From contig MFOC01000007.1 of the NCBI GenBank assembly GCA_001782235.1, positions 86,799-150,798 of the forward strand: 64,000 nt of DNA. Reading direction: 5' to 3'. The translations under genes were made by a program, and so were the position numbers. This document shows, in pieces, positions 7,271 through 54,269 of the stretch (position 1 is the first letter of the stretch; every line of letters starts with the position of its first letter). Source of the stretch: Candidatus Levybacteria bacterium RIFCSPHIGHO2_02_FULL_40_18. GTDB taxonomy: Bacteria; Patescibacteriota; Microgenomatia; Levybacterales; GWA1-39-11. Below the pieces are notes generated by a model. It worked only from the letters and a program-made list of their open reading frames with translations, made no database searches and was not told the DNA's origin.

Positions 7271-7810
7271 ATGGATGCAAAAAGCCTTTTTACCGCACAG
7301 GAGCTTGAAGAGCTTTTGGGGAAAATGTACTTCTACAGACAGCGTATTTACAGAATGGCAGAGGACGGAAAAATATCCCCTTATCAAGTTGATGGCAAGT
7401 TTTATTTTTCAAAAGATGAGCTAATAATGGCAACCCTGAATCGATTATCCGCAAGGATAAGGCTAAGGTTCTCAAGGCTCGCCCCCTTTCTAAGGATAAG
7501 TTTTGATGAAAACAAAAATAAAGCCATAACTGTTTACGGATTCCCGGATAAAAGCATCATTACTGCAAATACTGAAAACGAAACAGAAGAAGAACTTTTA
7601 AAAAAAGTAGAAAACAAGGGGAGGGAGGTGAAAAACATGCCAGACATTCCTGTTGGACCAGGTAATCACGATCACGATCATCCACATCCACCTCACCACC
7701 CGCCACATCATCCGCCTCATGGGCATGATAATCCTCCACACGAAGAGATTTTGGAAGTTTTAAGACGGATAGAAGATAGGTTGGTAAGAATTGAGGAAAA
7801 ATTAGGATAG
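7271..7810 (+). CDS. excisionase-family HTH DNA-binding protein with His/Pro-rich C-terminal repeat
   Basis: N-terminal LFTAQELEELLGKMYFYRQRIYRMAEDGKISPYQVDGKFYF matches the MerR/excisionase-type HTH. C-terminal HDHDHPHPPHHPPHHPPHGHDNPPH. A consensus promoter and palindromic operator sit just upstream. Confidence 0.6.
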   Translation: MDAKSLFTAQELEELLGKMYFYRQRIYRMAEDGKISPYQVDGKFYFSKDELIMATLNRLSARIRLRFSRLAPFLRISFDENKNKAITVYGFPDKSIITANTENETEEELLKKVENKGREVKNMPDIPVGPGNHDHDHPHPPHHPPHHPPHGHDNPPHEEILEVLRRIEDRLVRIEEKLG

Positions 7811-11249: not shown

Positions 11250-11714
11250 TTAAAGTGTGTTGATTGTAATTTTTCCGATTTTTTTAGGAAGCCGCCGATC
11301 TAGAGTGATAAAAATGCCCGCACCGGATTCAAGCGCTGAAGCAAGATGAATAGCATCAGGAGTTCGAACACTTGGAAAATTTGCTCTTATCCAGGCGGCT
11401 CGGCGAGCAACGTTTCTGTCAATATCTTTAACCGTGAATAATCCTCCCCCAGTAATAAATTCTTCATAATAACCAATATCTTTTGAAAAATCATCTTTAT
11501 AAAAGTAGACCAAAAATTCCTCAAAAACCAGCGCTGAGATAAAAACCTGGGGGCTTGCCTGCTTAATTTCTTCTAAAATTCTTTGCGCTTTTTCCCCCAG
11601 TGGATTAGGTTTGGTGTATGCGTTGAATGCGGAAATAAATATATTACTATCAAGTGCTAAAATTTGCGAGGGCAAAATTCGATTACTCATCCCATGAACT
11701 TCTTTCTTCTTCAA
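11250..11714 (-). CDS. vapC: PIN-domain toxin VapC
   Basis: LDSNIFISA...(D) and DAIHLASALESGAGIFITLD match PIN acidic residues. The likely true start is the internal Met at about 11690 (MSNRIL), giving an 8-nt overlap with vapB. Confidence 0.7.
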   Translation of the reverse strand: MKKKEVHGMSNRILPSQILALDSNIFISAFNAYTKPNPLGEKAQRILEEIKQASPQVFISALVFEEFLVYFYKDDFSKDIGYYEEFITGGGLFTVKDIDRNVARRAAWIRANFPSVRTPDAIHLASALESGAGIFITLDRRLPKKIGKITINTL

Positions 11715-11964
11715 GATATTTTAGAGGATCTACCCCTTTCCAGGGGTTTTTTAGCTTCTTATAGTAATCCTGGGGCCAGTTGAGTTTTTCTTCAAGGGTA
11801 GGGCGGGTTAATATAATCTGCTCTCCTGCCACGTGAACATTCATCTTCTGGCCGGGTTTAATATTGGCTTTCTTCCGTATCTCTTTTGGAATTACTATTT
11901 GATATTTTGTACTAACAAGTGTTTGATTCATAATCGTATTACATTTTACATAATCGTAAAACAA
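11683..11964 (-). CDS. vapB: AbrB/MazE/SpoVT-family antitoxin VapB
   Basis: STKYQIVIPKEIRKKANIKPGQKMNV matches the swapped-hairpin SpoVT/AbrB domain. The gene sits upstream of the PIN gene and overlaps it. Confidence 0.6.
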   Translation of the reverse strand: MFYDYVKCNTIMNQTLVSTKYQIVIPKEIRKKANIKPGQKMNVHVAGEQIILTRPTLEEKLNWPQDYYKKLKNPWKGVDPLKYLEEERSSWDE

Positions 11965-12261
11965 AAGTCAACCCCAAAAATTATCATGCAGACTATTATC
12001 GCAACTAGTGACTAGACACTAGCTACTAGAATTTCTTACGGCCTAAAACCTTCGCCAATTGGAGCGGAGTGCATGAGAAATGAACGAGCGTAGAGGGGGA
12101 CCCCTCACGAACTTGATGAGGAGGGGGAATGGTATCCCCCGCTAGTGAGTGAAATTTCGAAAGCACGAGTACCACTGGCGAGAGCTTTTGGTTCTTTTGT
12201 CGGCACAAAAGAATAAGAGATAAATTGACACTAAAGTATGCTATTGTATAATACTGTATAA

Positions 12262-13359
12262 ATGGAAAGACCGATACTTACGATAGCTCAGGCAGCAAAA
12301 TTATTGCAAGTTGATCCGAATACTATTTATCGCTGGGCCAGAGCGGGTAAATTTCCGGCGTCAAAGATCGGAAAAGAGTGGCGAGTACTTCGCTCTGACG
12401 TTATCAAGTTTGTAGAAAGTAAAAAATCGCGAGATCAGTTCCTGACAGAAAATCAAGAGGCTGAGCTTATTACAGCCTTAGTAGGAAGACGCGAAATTCC
12501 ATTAAAGTTCGAATATCTAGGAGAAGGGGCAGATAAATATGTTGCCATATCAGCACCAGAAATTGGGGGAGGTTCTGAAACAGAAATAATTTCAAACTAC
12601 AAAGGCCGTTTTTCAGATTTTTTAAAGAGTAAAAAATTTAACTTAGTGGACATTGGTTCAGGAGACGGGAAAAAAGCAGCGTTTGTTATTTCTCATGTTG
12701 CTAAAACCGTTTCCTCATATTCAGGGCTTGATATTTCAAAGCGGATGCTTGATCTTGCAGGGCAAACGATGCAGATTTCACACCCCGACTTAATGTATGA
12801 GAGATTCATTGAGGATTTTGAACATGGTAGTATTTCTAATGCTACCTATTATCTCAATCGGAGATATCAGAATAATAATTTAATTCTATTCTTAGGTAAT
12901 ACTATTGGAAATGTCTCCGATGCGCATCGTATTCTCATTAATCTTAGAGACGGAATGAGCGATCAGGATCTTTTATTGGTTGGGTTAGCATTCTATAACC
13001 CTCGAAATATTCCGCTTTCGACATATAACAGGAAGGTTGTCATCGATATGTTTTGGACTATTCCTGAAAAAATAGGCATAGAACGGGGAGATGCAAAAAT
13101 ATCGTGGATTTATAATGAGCATTTAAGGCAGGTAGAGTGCCAGCTTGAATTTGTACGCGGTTGGAGCAAGATTTTCGGGGGAAATCTGATTCGGTTTGGT
13201 AAAGGACAAAAGATAAGACTCGCCATCTCAAGAAGATTTACTAAAGATAATATTTTTGAACTTTTTGCCAAAGCTGGTTTTAAAATTGAGATCTTTGTTC
13301 ATGATAAAGATAATGCTTTAGTTTTATGCCGACCTCATGACTGGGAGAAAAGAATCTAA
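12262..13359 (+). CDS. fusion: N-terminal excisionase-type HTH + EgtD-like (Methyltransf_33) SAM-dependent histidine-type N-methyltransferase domain
   Basis: HTH: ILTIAQAAKLLQVDPNTIYRWARAGKFPASKIGKEWRV. Methyltransferase motif I LVDIGSGDGKK. EgtD-family signatures FLGNTIGNVSD...LLLVGLAFYNP and C-terminal IEIFVHDKDNALVLCRP. Confidence 0.6.
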   Translation: MERPILTIAQAAKLLQVDPNTIYRWARAGKFPASKIGKEWRVLRSDVIKFVESKKSRDQFLTENQEAELITALVGRREIPLKFEYLGEGADKYVAISAPEIGGGSETEIISNYKGRFSDFLKSKKFNLVDIGSGDGKKAAFVISHVAKTVSSYSGLDISKRMLDLAGQTMQISHPDLMYERFIEDFEHGSISNATYYLNRRYQNNNLILFLGNTIGNVSDAHRILINLRDGMSDQDLLLVGLAFYNPRNIPLSTYNRKVVIDMFWTIPEKIGIERGDAKISWIYNEHLRQVECQLEFVRGWSKIFGGNLIRFGKGQKIRLAISRRFTKDNIFELFAKAGFKIEIFVHDKDNALVLCRPHDWEKRI

Positions 13360-17553: not shown

Positions 17554-17583
17554 TTGACAAAAAGTTATCCACATCTTTATACT
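17554..17583 (+). promoter_or_regulatory. dnaA promoter (TTGACA-18-TATACT) with consensus DnaA box TTATCCACA in the spacer
   Basis: TTGACA at 17554-17559, TTATCCACA at 17565-17573, TATACT at 17578-17583. About 50 nt upstream of the dnaA ATG. Confidence 0.6.
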
Positions 17584-17631
17584 CAAACCCCGCGAGAATT
17601 ATTTCGCATCTTTGGGGCAACCCTATTTTTT

Positions 17632-18966
17632 ATGGAAAAGCTCTGGAAGCAAGTTTTAGAAGAAATAGAACTCGAAGTATCAAAACCAATATTTCTCACT
17701 TTTTTCAAACCTACCGTTCTTGTTTCGCTTGAAAACTCCGTAGCAACCATTAATTCTCCAACACATATAACAGCGGAGTACATTGAAAAAAGATATTATT
17801 CTTTAATAAAAAAAGCTCTAGATAAAAAAACAGGACAAAATATAAGTATTATCTTTGCTGCAGGCGGATCCTCTCAGATAAATTTTAAAAGCAATAAGGG
17901 AGTAGGCCCTCTTTTTGTTAGCGACATAGAAAAAGATTCTAAAAAAATGCGGCCTGCAAGAATTAGGCCGGATTATACTTTTGAATCTCTGGCAGTATCA
18001 GACAGCAACCAGCTCGCCTATACGGCGGCTATGACTGTTGCCTCGTCTCCTGGAACAAAATACAATCCTCTTTTTCTTTATGGAACTGTCGGAGTGGGTA
18101 AAACTCATCTTATGAATGCTATAGCGAATAAAATTTTTGACGATAAAAAGAGCTTTAAACCCCTCTATTTAACGACGGAGGAATTCACGAACGAGGTTGT
18201 AGAGGCAATAAGAGATAAAACTACGGCAAATTTGAGAAGAAAATTTAGAAATGTTGATATACTTCTTTTGGATGATATCCAGTTTCTTGCCGGAAAAGAA
18301 AAAGTACAGGAAGAACTTTTTCATACATTTAACACTCTTATTGATAAGGGAAATCAAGTAGTTTTATCTTCCGATAGCCCCCCCCAAGAGCTTAAAAAAA
18401 TAGAAAAAAGATTAGCCTCCCGGTTTGAAGGAGGGCTCTTGGTTGACATAGAACCTCCTGACTTTGAGCTAAGATGCGCTATTTTATTAATAAAAAGCAG
18501 AAAATACGGCTTAAACCTAAGTCTTGAAGCTGCAAAAATTATTGCTGAGAAAATTGAGGACACGCGCGCACTCGAGGGGTTTTTGCTAAGACTTTCCTCT
18601 GTTTCTCAAGAAACTGACGATATCGATTTTGACCATGTTCTCTCTATTCTTAAGAAGAATAAAACATCCCCAGTTGTCTTTCATCCAGACACGATTGTTT
18701 CTACCGTCTGTTCTTTTTATAATATAAAACCAACACAGTTAAAAGGGGCAAAAAGAGATTCTTTTTTGGTAAGGCCAAGACATATTTGCATGTATCTTCT
18801 TAAAGAGGAGGCGGGCCTCACTTATGTTGAGATTGGAAATCTTCTTGGGGGTCGCGACCATTCAACCGTAATACATGCTGTGGAAAAGATTGGGAAACTT
18901 GCCTCTTCGTCTGATAAGACCCGTGAGGAAATTATGTTTATAAAAGGAAAAATAAAAGAATTTTAA
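17632..18966 (+). CDS. dnaA: chromosomal replication initiator DnaA
   Basis: AAA+ Walker A GTVGVGKTHL, box VII, and C-terminal DnaA-box-binding domain (ICMYLLKEE...LGGRDHSTVIHA). The ORF track starts at TTG 17554, which is the -35 hexamer. ATG 17632 (MEKLWKQVLEEIE) is the plausible start. Confidence 0.9.
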   Translation: MEKLWKQVLEEIELEVSKPIFLTFFKPTVLVSLENSVATINSPTHITAEYIEKRYYSLIKKALDKKTGQNISIIFAAGGSSQINFKSNKGVGPLFVSDIEKDSKKMRPARIRPDYTFESLAVSDSNQLAYTAAMTVASSPGTKYNPLFLYGTVGVGKTHLMNAIANKIFDDKKSFKPLYLTTEEFTNEVVEAIRDKTTANLRRKFRNVDILLLDDIQFLAGKEKVQEELFHTFNTLIDKGNQVVLSSDSPPQELKKIEKRLASRFEGGLLVDIEPPDFELRCAILLIKSRKYGLNLSLEAAKIIAEKIEDTRALEGFLLRLSSVSQETDDIDFDHVLSILKKNKTSPVVFHPDTIVSTVCSFYNIKPTQLKGAKRDSFLVRPRHICMYLLKEEAGLTYVEIGNLLGGRDHSTVIHAVEKIGKLASSSDKTREEIMFIKGKIKEF

Positions 18967-19151
18967 TTTTATTAACAAAACATGCACATGTTTATCTACA
19001 AAATATGCACAAAAAAATACGCATTGCCTTGTGGTTTTTTCCAGATATCAACACCCCCTACTACTAATACTAATATAATTATATTGCTGCATTGTTCAAT
19101 TGTTTTTATTGTTATACATATATTAATAAAGCCGTATAATAATATAATTTT
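18967..19151. other. candidate oriC / DNA-unwinding region in the dnaA-dnaN spacer
   Basis: 185-nt strongly AT-rich spacer with DnaA-box-like 9-mers (TTATCTACA, TGTGGTTTT). This is the canonical origin position. Confidence 0.45.
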
Positions 19152-20249
19152 ATGAAAGTCGAATTTTTAATAGAAAATATTGAAAAATTTTTACCCCTAG
19201 TTTCTAAAATTATTCCTATTCATTCACAAATTCCTATTCTTTCAAATATTCTTCTTGAGGCAACAAAGCAAGGATTTTATATAAGCGTTACAAACCTAGA
19301 AATAGGAGCAAGAATTAAAATACCGGCAAAAATTGAAGAGATGGGAGCAACAACAGTTCCAGGAAGACAGTTCGTTGAAACACTCTCATCATTACCGAAA
19401 GACAAAGCATTATTGTTTCTAGAAAAAGATGCTTTAAAAATAAAATGCAGAGGCAATAATATTACTTTTCAAACAATTACAAGAGACGAGTTCCCAAATG
19501 TTCTTGATGAGAAGGGAGAAAAAAAACGTACCTTTTCAGAAGAAGAGATGAGGAGTATATTTGAAAAGTTAATAATAGCAGTCTCGCAAGATGACTCAAG
19601 GCCAGAGCTTACGGGAATATTGTTTTCTCAAAGAGATGGAAAAACAGATTTTGTTGCAACTGACGGATTTCGTCTCTCGTTAAAGAAGATGAAGAAAGAG
19701 AAAATGCTTTTAGGTCAGGAGTCAATAATTCTCCCCGCAAGATTAATTCTGGAGGCTATGGGCCTTCCTGGAGAAACATCTTTATATATTTACAAAAAAG
19801 GCAACCAGGTAGTTTTGGAAAACGATGAAACCCTTCTTATCGGGAGACTAATAAATGGCGAGTTCCCAAACTATGAAAGGGTAATTCCAACGTCTTTTAA
19901 AACAAGTATAACTTTAGATGTCCAAGAGCTTTTGCAAAAGTTAAGACTCGCATCCGTTTTTGCAAGAGACGCGGCAAATATTATCAGGTTAATAATATCA
20001 GAGGGTAAAGTGAAAATAACAGCCCGGGCAAGTGGTATAGGTGAGGGCGAGGCAATTATTGAGGGAGAACAGGAAGGAGAAGATAATGAAATAGCCTTTA
20101 ATATAAAGTTTTTAATAGATCTTTTGAAAAACACTCAGGAAAAGACATTGGTGATGGAACTTTCAAGCCCTGTTGAGCCGGCGACATTCAAGATCCCCGA
20201 GGACCCCGACTTTTTGCACATTATAATGCCCGTGCGTGTCCAAGAATAA
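19152..20249 (+). CDS. dnaN: DNA polymerase III beta sliding clamp DnaN
   Basis: Three-domain clamp collinearity, immediately downstream of dnaA. Confidence 0.9.
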   Translation: MKVEFLIENIEKFLPLVSKIIPIHSQIPILSNILLEATKQGFYISVTNLEIGARIKIPAKIEEMGATTVPGRQFVETLSSLPKDKALLFLEKDALKIKCRGNNITFQTITRDEFPNVLDEKGEKKRTFSEEEMRSIFEKLIIAVSQDDSRPELTGILFSQRDGKTDFVATDGFRLSLKKMKKEKMLLGQESIILPARLILEAMGLPGETSLYIYKKGNQVVLENDETLLIGRLINGEFPNYERVIPTSFKTSITLDVQELLQKLRLASVFARDAANIIRLIISEGKVKITARASGIGEGEAIIEGEQEGEDNEIAFNIKFLIDLLKNTQEKTLVMELSSPVEPATFKIPEDPDFLHIIMPVRVQE

Positions 20250-45689: not shown

Positions 45690-45840
45690 TAGTTTCAAAT
45701 AAGAGTATATATTTGGTAATCGCCGTGAAAGTCGGCGGAACTGCCGGTACTGTAATATCCAGAAAACAATATATACTTTCATCCCCGAGCAGGGTTAAGC
45801 GAAGAAGAATTCCTCTCGGGTTATCGAGAGGTTTTTTTGT
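45690..45840 (+). promoter_or_regulatory. cobalamin-riboswitch-like leader plus intrinsic terminator upstream of the PduO adenosyltransferase gene
   Basis: GGTAATCGCCGTGAAAGTCGGCGGAACTGCCGGTACTGTAAT resembles the AdoCbl aptamer core (GGGAAGCCGGTGAAAATCCGGCGCGGTCCCGCCACTGTAA, from memory). It is followed by the hairpin CCTCTCGGGTTATCGAGAGG plus T7. Confidence 0.45.
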
Positions 45841-54053: not shown

Positions 54054-54198
54054 CGGAAATTCTATTATAGCAGATGTTATAGGTGCGAGAGAATTATGGG
54101 TGCGCTTGGATTCGAACCCCGTACAAAACTTACTTGTTCCCGAGGCTTACAGCCTCGCGTCACAAGAGCGTTTCTACGGGGCAAGCCAAAGACATCTG

Positions 54199-54269
54199 TA
54201 GGCCCGGAAGGAGTCGGACCTTCGTGTCGACTTTATAAGAGTCGTGTCCTACCGTTGAACGACGGGCCT
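54199..54269 (-). tRNA. probable tRNA-Ile (anticodon TAT); atypical T-loop TCCGACT (C55)
   Basis: Hand fold. Acceptor AGGCCCG/CGGGCCT (7/7), D-arm GTTC-AACGGTA-GGAC, anticodon stem CGACT/AGTCG with loop CTTATAA, variable ACAC, T-arm GAAGG-TCCGACT-CCTTC, discriminator A. Length 71 nt. Confidence 0.5.

Follow-up and report, generated by a model that had tools for sequence, protein, structure and literature searches.

Results

An HTH_17 domain is joined to an EgtD-like methyltransferase domain

The stretch of DNA analysed here (hereafter the window) comprises 64,000 nucleotides (nt) of contig MFOC01000007.1 from Candidatus Levybacteria bacterium RIFCSPHIGHO2_02_FULL_40_18 and encodes a protein of 365 amino acids (aa) in which a helix-turn-helix (HTH) domain of the HTH_17 family is followed by a methyltransferase domain of the Methyltransf_33 (MT33) family (Table 1). 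In Pfam, HTH_17 (PF12728) matched residues 6-54 (E 6.7e-18; 65.1 bits, cutoff 27) and MT33 (PF10017) residues 104-353 (E 1.3e-28; 100.5 bits, cutoff 23), and in NCBIfam the excisionase-family domain 'excise' (TIGR01764) was matched at 42.5 bits (cutoff 28.8). An AlphaFold2 model computed from an alignment of 82 sequences had a mean predicted local distance difference test (pLDDT) score of 90.4. It shows a winged HTH (strand-helix-turn-helix-wing-helix) at residues 5-58 and then a Rossmann-type methyltransferase, with a pLDDT dip at about residues 51-60 and a short low-confidence linker at about residues 59-62. All of the top 15 PDB matches of this model in Foldseek were EgtD (E about 1e-21, best 7e-22; target-normalised template modelling (TM) scores 0.76-0.83). 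An earlier note on this DNA had proposed a fusion of these two domains, to be checked by profile searches and by inspection of the S-adenosylmethionine (SAM)-binding motifs; both domains were indeed matched above cutoff, the fold is EgtD-like, and the SAM motifs are intact.

The N-terminal sequence M-E-[RK]-x-I-L-T is kept in homologues, which supports the annotated start codon. An identical 'hypothetical protein' is recorded for a Candidatus Levybacteria metagenome-assembled genome (MAG; RIFCSPHIGHO2_02_FULL), and 26 contigs encode the identical sequence. Together with the occurrence of the same architecture in about 80 clusters, this rules out an assembly artefact. These clusters, formed at 90% identity, came from a search of 5.8 billion clustered proteins; they are 50-90% identical, and all that carry a name belong to the Patescibacteria (Levybacteria and Woesebacteria). 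Further fusions were recovered as 12 full-length loci in a scan of species-representative genomes, including Curtissbacteria and one MAG labelled Micrarchaeota, and as 34 of the best 80 among 299 relatives in a metagenome scan. Among 65 fusion proteins, mean pairwise identity is 80% in the HTH versus 59% in the methyltransferase part. A description of these fusions was not found in the open-access literature.

Table 1 Positions of the features discussed. Rows without an L number refer to the window; L numbers are our labels for other loci.
Feature	Position	Strand	Basis or remark
HTH_17 + MT33 fusion gene	12262..13359	+	single complete open reading frame, 365 aa, ATG start
Winged HTH, aa 1-58 (HTH_17/excisionase/BldC-like)	12262..12435	+	Pfam, BldC alignment, DSSP topology
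EgtD-like methyltransferase domain, aa 63-360	12448..13341	+	Pfam 100.5 bits; EgtD profile match E 5e-17; Foldseek TM
SAM-binding motif I, D130-x-G132-x-G134-x-G136	12649..12669	+	family conservation
F210-LGNTIGN217 = EgtD FLGSTIGN (Gly161, Thr163, Asn166; alpha-amino site)	12889..12912	+	profile mapping
Sigma-70-type promoter: TTGACA (12225-12230), 16-nt spacer, TATAAT (12247-12252)	12225..12252	+	12/12 consensus match
Candidate operator, three head-to-tail 10-bp units AAAGTATGCT / ATTGTATAAT / ACTGTATAAA	12233..12262	+	upstream-region comparison, motif scans
VapBC-type pair (AbrB/MazE-like antitoxin + PIN toxin, overlapping)	11250-11964	-	immediately upstream of fusion gene
dnaA, dnaN	17554-20249	+	4 kb downstream of fusion gene
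Leader insertion	L008 2054-2160; L009 5135-5269; L058 2886-3001; also L059, L071		
HTH_17-MT33 protein with middle insert, Diapherotrites	L051 4971-6551		516 aa
HTH_17-MEDS protein, Chloroflexia	L045 5804-6735		249 aa
Operator motif with class-I methyltransferase gene	L074 591-2437 (also L073, L083)		
HTH-MT33 proteins of about 400 aa	L132 1328-2515; L133 3990-5177; L134 6001-7206		

The methyltransferase domain keeps nearly all SAM and amino-acid contact residues of EgtD and lacks its histidine-selecting Glu282

We mapped the family profile onto EgtD and determined conservation in 82 sequences (65 fusions and 17 stand-alone relatives), with the roles of the EgtD residues taken from the work on the Mycobacterium tuberculosis enzyme (PMC8593015). 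SAM-binding motif I proved nearly invariant: G132, G134 and G136 are present in 82/82 sequences and D130 in 80/82 (65/65 fusions, 15/17 stand-alone relatives). D157 and D185-F186 do not vary. Invariant as well are G212, T214 and N217, which correspond to EgtD G161, T163 and N166, and Y85 (EgtD Y39), and the equivalents of EgtD Y206 (Y255) and S284 (S323) are each found in 81/82. That the geometry for methyl transfer does not vary speaks for an active N-methyltransferase with a free amino acid as its substrate.

The positions lining the side chain of the substrate differ from those of EgtD, where Glu282, and Thr213 with a bound water, select the imidazole (PMC8593015). The Glu282 position is Ala321 in the window protein and Ala in 60/65 fusions, and the Thr213 segment is deleted in the family according to the profile alignment. 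At the Met252 position the window protein has Cys, and the family Cys, Tyr or other residues; at the Tyr56 position it has Ile101, with Val or Ile in the close clade and Tyr in 39/65 fusions. An engineered M252V/E282A variant of EgtD was crystallised with tryptophan (PDB title 4PIP), so that a small residue at position 282 appears compatible with a bulkier, non-imidazole side chain, which we take as a hint only. Taken together, the retained SAM, alpha-amino and carboxylate residues and the loss of Glu282 point to a substrate other than histidine.

EgtD is the closest relative in PDB and NCBIfam, and several sources use its name for these proteins. Still, that the fusion protein is a genuine L-histidine N-alpha-methyltransferase making hercynine or ergothioneine is very improbable: the EgtD equivalog TIGR03438 scored 86.7 bits against a cutoff of 290.9, sequence identity to EgtD is about 19%, Glu282 and the Thr213 segment are lost, and none of egtB/C/E (or ovoA/eanB) turned up over a distance of about 6-12 kb, either in the window or in 14 related loci. 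Several homologues carry the NCBI name 'L-histidine N(alpha)-methyltransferase', which is therefore probably an over-annotation, since the equivalog is far under its cutoff, Glu282 is lost, and no egtB/C/E-type gene was found nearby. For the same reasons the 'EgtD-like histidine-type' domain of the earlier note can be kept as regards the EgtD-like fold, and 'histidine-type' has to be dropped.

The HTH resembles BldC

The HTH has N20-T-I-Y-R24-W-A-R27 as its recognition helix. The best match of this domain among solved structures is BldC (6AMK/6AMA; 17/34 identical), and BldC Arg30 aligns with Arg24 of the fusion protein. BldC multimerises head-to-tail on 9-bp direct repeats, with Arg30 contacting 5'-YpG-3' (PMC5859096). 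In an alignment of 22 sequences Arg24 is conserved to at least 90%; it is kept in the repeat-bearing loci compared below and is replaced by Gly in L049 (protein P0079), a locus without repeats. The BldC model NF033787 scored 29.2 bits against a cutoff of 77. The MADS defence system was also considered for this domain and rejected, because the MAD1 model NF047737 reached 40.5 bits against a cutoff of 80, the PADLOC mad1 match (48 bits) spans the HTH only, and mad neighbours (mad2-mad8) were not found nearby.

A neighbouring gene (7271-7810) encodes a 179-aa protein whose N-terminus (IYRMAEDGKISPYQVDGKFYF) resembles HTH_17 below the threshold and which also has a His/Pro-rich tract (HDHDHPHPPHHPPHHPPHGHD) that may bind metal. 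That this neighbour carries an HTH of the same type, as had been claimed, holds weakly at best: the HTH_17 score is 21.8 bits with a cutoff of 27, and BLASTP against the fusion HTH gave an E value of 0.028. TGTAT repeats of the kind described in the following were not found upstream of its gene.

Direct repeats overlap the promoter of the fusion gene

The sigma-70-type promoter of the fusion gene in the window ends with a -10 box 9 nt ahead of the ATG, so that the mRNA is effectively leaderless. We compared the upstream regions of 36 distinct loci, and 27 distinct regions share direct repeats with a period of 10 bp and the consensus AyTGTATrAy. Hardly any variation is seen in the two proximal units, ATTGTATGAT ACTGTATAAT, even where the encoded proteins are 50-65% identical (range of the set 50-90%), and these units usually lie 7 nt ahead of ATG or GTG; the TpG step is invariant in every repeat unit. 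The -10 box is provided by unit 3 in most loci, with the start codon 7 nt further on and a leaderless mRNA. Unit 2 then falls into the promoter spacer, where a promoter needs no conserved sequence, yet it is conserved to the same degree as the -10 box. In the clade of the window the promoter has moved one unit upstream, and the repeats are still kept: unit 2 contains the -10 box, and unit 3 (12253-12262) spans the transcription start and the A of the ATG.

A 20-nt position weight matrix (PWM) was scanned over 911 kb (the window and 131 loci), where a score of at least 20 bits counted as a strong match. Forty of the 45 strong matches lie directly upstream of a fusion gene, among them the one in the Diapherotrites locus L051 and those in loci with a 97-125-nt insertion before the start codon. 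Another three (L073, L074 and L083) precede a two-gene operon whose last gene is the fusion, and the remaining two overlap each other upstream of a Chloroflexi HTH_17-MEDS gene (L045). Within the 64-kb window the motif occurs once, with about 0.03-0.06 occurrences expected by chance. Neither TGTATAAT nor a double TGTAT is enriched elsewhere, so TGTATAAT is no general promoter word here. A second operator-like site, with 18 bits and upstream of another methyltransferase gene in L010, was rejected as too weak to tell from chance.

This single site also bears on the suggestion that the protein is a DNA-tethered methyltransferase, whose HTH would target the enzyme to DNA to methylate either DNA or the N-terminus of a DNA-bound protein. 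What speaks for it is the architecture, along with the match of the HTH to MAD1 and the ability of class-I methyltransferases to evolve macromolecular substrates. However, the active site keeps the residues with which EgtD holds a free alpha-amino acid, including the carboxylate-binding Tyr206 and Ser284 equivalents, and also the closed amino-acid pocket; the MAD1 match stays under the NCBIfam cutoff; mad, restriction or defence genes were not found nearby, nor were relatives in viral collections; and there is one site per 64 kb. We therefore regard tethering, one of the two functions proposed in the earlier note, as quite improbable.

Two structured elements were seen close to the candidate operator. 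An Rfam scan of 11950-12270 at E<=1 gave no match to an RNA family. The intergenic block between vapB and the fusion promoter (12020-12222) is GC-richer and forms one long imperfect hairpin (z -4.2 on the plus strand and -4.8 on the minus strand). This hairpin is without match in Rfam and occurs at no other place in the window; only the 3' part, about 58 nt long, was seen again, with two copies in the Levybacteria locus L001. It may be a palindromic element similar to a miniature inverted-repeat transposable element (MITE) or a small RNA. A lineage of Curtissbacteria type has 97-125 nt of structured sequence inserted between operator unit 3 and the start codon (junctions placed by inspection). 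The inverted ends of this leader insertion read TCAGC...GCTGA; it contains two variable hairpins, is accompanied by what seems to be a TA duplication, and restores a TATAAT box at its 3' junction. It resembles a MITE and could also be a cis-regulatory leader; a SAM or S-adenosylhomocysteine (SAH) riboswitch in the long leaders of L008, L009 and L058 was rejected, as the Rfam scan gave no match.

The repeats follow the recognition helix across lineages

In a Diapherotrites archaeon (L051, on a 581-kb contig) we found a protein with an HTH_17 domain 65% identical to that of the fusion protein, a divergent MT33 domain and, in the middle, an insert of about 200 aa without Pfam match. Three units, AAAGTATTGT TGTGTATTAC ACTGTATAAT, lie upstream of its gene and abut the ATG. 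A Chloroflexia MAG (L045) encodes an HTH_17 protein with the recognition helix NTVYRW, in which a MEDS domain, another type of sensor domain, takes the place of MT33, and four tandem 10-bp TGTAT-type units are located about 145-180 nt upstream of its start. Both proteins thus share the NT[IV]YRW helix and have the repeats, whereas no repeats were found upstream of two divergent fusions with an altered helix, L049 (NTIYGW) and L012 (DTVCRW). This pattern ties the repeats to this HTH and not to RNA polymerase. The Diapherotrites locus suggests that the HTH-operator pair moved between bacteria of the candidate phyla radiation (CPR) and archaea of the DPANN group. The signs of a BldC-like mode, direct repeats with an invariant TpG and a conserved equivalent of Arg30 (Arg24), are both observed, from which binding is predicted at the sequence level. 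The transcription-factor reading of the earlier note hence gains real support from a candidate operator on the protein's own promoter that tracks the recognition helix.

Alternatively, the upstream block might be a strong lineage-specific promoter for RNA polymerase or another factor, with the HTH binding elsewhere or not being autoregulatory. Unit 3 contains TATAAT, unit 1 reads TTGCAT at -35 distance in one clade, the window has a perfect TTGACA-16-TATAAT, and an RpoD with region 4 is encoded in the window. But a promoter alone would hardly account for the conservation of the spacer-located unit 2 in most loci, for repeats that persist despite the one-unit promoter shift, for the lack of enrichment of TGTATAAT and of double TGTAT elsewhere, or for a motif that follows the HTH into an archaeon, with its different transcription machinery, and to a MEDS protein and is gone where the recognition helix is altered. 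We consider this alternative unlikely.

MT33 domains are joined to further DNA-binding-type domains

An exhaustive HMMER search of 1.84 billion cluster representatives yielded 2398 relatives, among which the HTH_17 version is represented by only two full-length representatives and fragments. About 50 of the best 150 relatives are proteins of about 390-415 aa that share a mutually homologous N-terminal domain of about 95 aa, different from HTH_17 and bearing the classic HTH signature [VI][ST]xxTVxxW[IV]. One cluster of these proteins includes BAY87845.1 from a plasmid of Calothrix parasitica NIES-267, one member lies in a phage-like region with RecT, exonuclease and KilA-N, and one is divergent to a methyltransferase gene, two tRNA-synthetase-like genes and a Peptidase_S66 (MccF-like) gene. 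Of the relatives from Micrarchaeota, P0106 is MarR-like at its N-terminus, and P0083/87/90 are extended there by about 55 further aa. An extra N-terminal domain in the relatives from Woesearchaeota, Pacearchaeota and Nanoarchaeota was rejected; on inspection this part appears to be a normal MT33 lid with an insertion, and these proteins seem to be stand-alone enzymes.

The approximately 400-aa proteins and the Micrarchaeota proteins resemble the window protein in the motifs of the MT33 subfamily (GxxE[IV]PxK[FY]xY..G[GA] and the LGxT..N loop) and in having a DNA-binding-type domain at the N-terminus. They differ in that this domain is non-homologous (sub-threshold HTH_23, HTH_3 or MarR) and in their hosts and contexts. 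The open-access literature yielded no account of these proteins either. The earlier statement that EgtD-family enzymes are normally stand-alone is thus partly true, given that another HTH stands at the N-terminus in about a third of the 150 closest representatives. As the MT33 subfamily was joined to DNA-binding-type domains several times, a regulatory role of the combination is likely. As a tentative extension, EgtD-like domains might be the ligand-binding or catalytic module of widespread, undescribed one-component regulators that couple SAM or amino-acid status, or methylation, to transcription; they would have been joined independently to HTH_17 (in CPR Microgenomates and one Diapherotrites archaeon), to a MarR-like winged HTH and another module in Micrarchaeota, and to a third HTH in the proteins of about 400 aa (from a cyanobacterial plasmid and phage-like contigs), and the TGTAT version would have crossed, among ultra-small symbionts, the boundary between bacteria and archaea.

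The fusion gene resides among core chromosomal genes

The neighbours of the fusion gene are core-chromosome genes, which encode DnaG, RpoD, RuvB/A/C, the VapBC pair, a HAD hydrolase, an AI-2E transporter, a glycosyltransferase, DnaA and DnaN. With dnaA and dnaN 4 kb downstream, the locus lies near the probable replication origin. This setting is relevant to the possibility that the HTH is the excisionase (recombination directionality factor) of a mobile element and was fused by chance to a cargo enzyme, as the 'excise' match might suggest. In line with that, the single match from phages, to the HTH only, is named 'excisionase and transcriptional regulator'. In contrast, no integrase or recombinase was found at distances of up to about 12 kb, gene order at the locus is chromosomal and stable, and the fusion is conserved in about 80 clusters, which makes an excisionase scarcely credible. 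An origin of the fusion in phages or plasmids was rejected likewise: IMG/VR contained no relatives, phages gave the one HTH-only match, and plasmids gave none for P0142.

A universal gene partner was not found among the related loci, which instead show two lineage-specific syntenies of housekeeping genes. In L073, L074 and L083 the operator motif lies 27 nt upstream of a gene whose product is a class-I SAM methyltransferase of 227 aa. Between the stop of this gene and the HTH-MT33 gene there are 5 nt, so that the repeats precede an operon of both genes. In L050, L058, L063 and L008 the gene directly upstream of the fusion belongs to another class-I methyltransferase family. We rejected a conserved biosynthetic partner, since these genes recur in some lineages only and fall into two families whose relationship is weak, and the window has none of them.

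Farther away in the window, an AdoCbl-II (cobalamin) riboswitch aptamer was detected at 45704-45777 on the plus strand (39.8 bits; Rfam gathering score 36.5), which is notable in a reduced CPR genome. On the minus strand, ARAGORN located a tRNA-Ile with the anticodon TAT (UAU) at 54198-54269; a UAU anticodon is the minority way of reading AUA in bacteria, the usual one being a lysidine-modified CAU.

Discussion

Our findings are best explained, at a rough probability of 55%, by an enzyme and a regulator in one polypeptide, that is, an autorepressing HTH joined to a structurally intact EgtD-type methyltransferase for an amino acid other than histidine. Within this reading, the mechanism with the best support is that the protein regulates its own gene by binding head-to-tail across the -10 box and the start site. 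The HTH_17 winged helix would most likely bind two or three of the 10-bp repeats (AyTGTATrAy) on its own promoter in a BldC/Xis-like mode, in which each repeat would be occupied by one protomer and Arg24 would read the TpG step that is invariant in the repeats. As this binding would overlap the -10 box and the transcription start of a leaderless promoter, the protein would repress its own synthesis. The methyltransferase domain would probably N-methylate a non-histidine amino acid, possibly a larger hydrophobic or aromatic one, and would not provide hercynine for ergothioneine. More speculatively, occupancy by SAM, SAH or the substrate may modulate DNA binding and thereby tie expression to ligand supply. 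Only about four residues separate the HTH from the N-terminal lid of the MT33 domain, which carries the equivalents of Tyr39, Phe47 and Tyr56, and EgtD closes on its substrates (PMC8593015); this short joint and the closure make such a ligand control structurally plausible.

Several points weigh against an autorepressing enzyme. DNA binding and activity are both derived from comparison throughout. Part of the conservation of the repeats is conservation of the promoter, because unit 3 doubles as a -10 box and, in one clade, unit 1 looks like a -35 box. It may be sterically difficult to seat 365-aa protomers at 10-bp intervals along one face of the DNA. Where EgtD contacts the carboxylate with Tyr56, the window protein has Ile101, and a conserved pathway partner that would name the substrate or the use of the product was not found in the related loci. 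Finally, the conserved residues of the ligand site would be equally expected in a sensor without catalysis, which would have to conserve the same pocket as an active methyltransferase.

The last point leads to a pure transcription factor, in which catalysis would have been lost and the EgtD-like domain would sense SAM, SAH or an amino acid in a SahR-like manner to control its own gene and perhaps a small regulon. The evidence from the candidate operator serves this explanation as well as it serves an autorepressing enzyme. The HTH is the most conserved part of the protein, no biosynthetic partner gene was found in the related loci, and the fusion of the MT33 subfamily to at least two or three other DNA-binding-type N-termini is typical of one-component sensor modules; in some lineages the operator or the gene also accompanies other class-I SAM methyltransferase genes. 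On the other hand, nearly all EgtD residues that place the methyl donor and the acceptor amine are invariant, including Asn166 and the FLGNTIGN loop, the sequence bears no sign of lost catalysis, and the motif is found in the 64 kb only at the gene's own promoter. We thus hold a pure transcription factor to be rather unlikely, with odds that are low but not negligible.

The fusion protein belongs to MT33 and HTH_17 and does not qualify as EgtD proper, BldC, MADS MAD1, an excisionase or SahR. It has in common with EgtD (4PIM/4PIO/4UY6/7SCF) the fold, the SAM motifs, the alpha-amino site (Gly161, Thr163 and Asn166), the carboxylate site (Tyr206 and Ser284) and Tyr39, but differs in the additional N-terminal HTH, in Glu282 to Ala, Met252 to Cys and Tyr56 to Ile, in the absent Thr213 loop, and in its CPR host without ergothioneine gene context nearby. 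With BldC of Streptomyces and Xis-type HTH_17 proteins it shares the HTH match, the equivalence of Arg30 and Arg24 and, in the candidate operator, direct repeats with an invariant TpG. BldC, however, is a stand-alone domain of 68 aa with a large regulon, whereas the fusion HTH is joined to a 300-aa enzyme, and the repeats differ in period (9 versus 10 bp) and core (AATT-N4-C versus TGTAT).

Conceptually, the fusion is close to SahR/SamR, for which a winged HTH joined to a SAM-methyltransferase-type effector domain was reportedly described by Novichkov et al. in 2014, although the resemblance is functional only. SahR is SAH-responsive and autoregulated (PMC4239095). It has an ArsR HTH in place of HTH_17 and a different methyltransferase family, and acts through a 20-bp palindromic operator on a methionine/SAM-cycle regulon, while the fusion has direct repeats and only its own gene was seen as a target. 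Enzymes that repress their own gene or operon through a DNA-binding domain of their own include BirA, PutA, NadR and the SsoII-type DNA methyltransferases, whose autoregulatory HTH is N-terminal. Their enzyme classes and HTH types are unrelated to those of the fusion, and SsoII-type enzymes methylate DNA, whereas the site of the fusion protein looks built for a free amino acid. By analogy, the fusion protein probably works like the bifunctional enzyme-repressors BirA and PutA or like SahR.

The fusion itself is a modest surprise; what our analysis adds is a concrete candidate operator, its covariation with the recognition helix, its occurrence across domains of life and the recurrence of HTH-MT33 fusions. 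For annotation this matters because 'L-histidine N(alpha)-methyltransferase' is the current name of dozens of proteins from CPR bacteria and DPANN archaea and wrongly implies hercynine or ergothioneine synthesis in organisms with minimal metabolism. To our knowledge, almost no transcription factors have been characterised in Patescibacteria, and for this group we can now propose a concrete regulatory circuit, consisting of a protein, a candidate operator of 20-30 bp, a leaderless promoter and a predicted contact residue, Arg24. The HTH-operator pair in the Diapherotrites archaeon would furthermore serve as a clean marker for the passage of genes between the two groups of ultra-small symbionts. 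If MT33 domains do act as sensors or enzyme-switches, they would constitute a new module in one-component signalling, alongside SahR.

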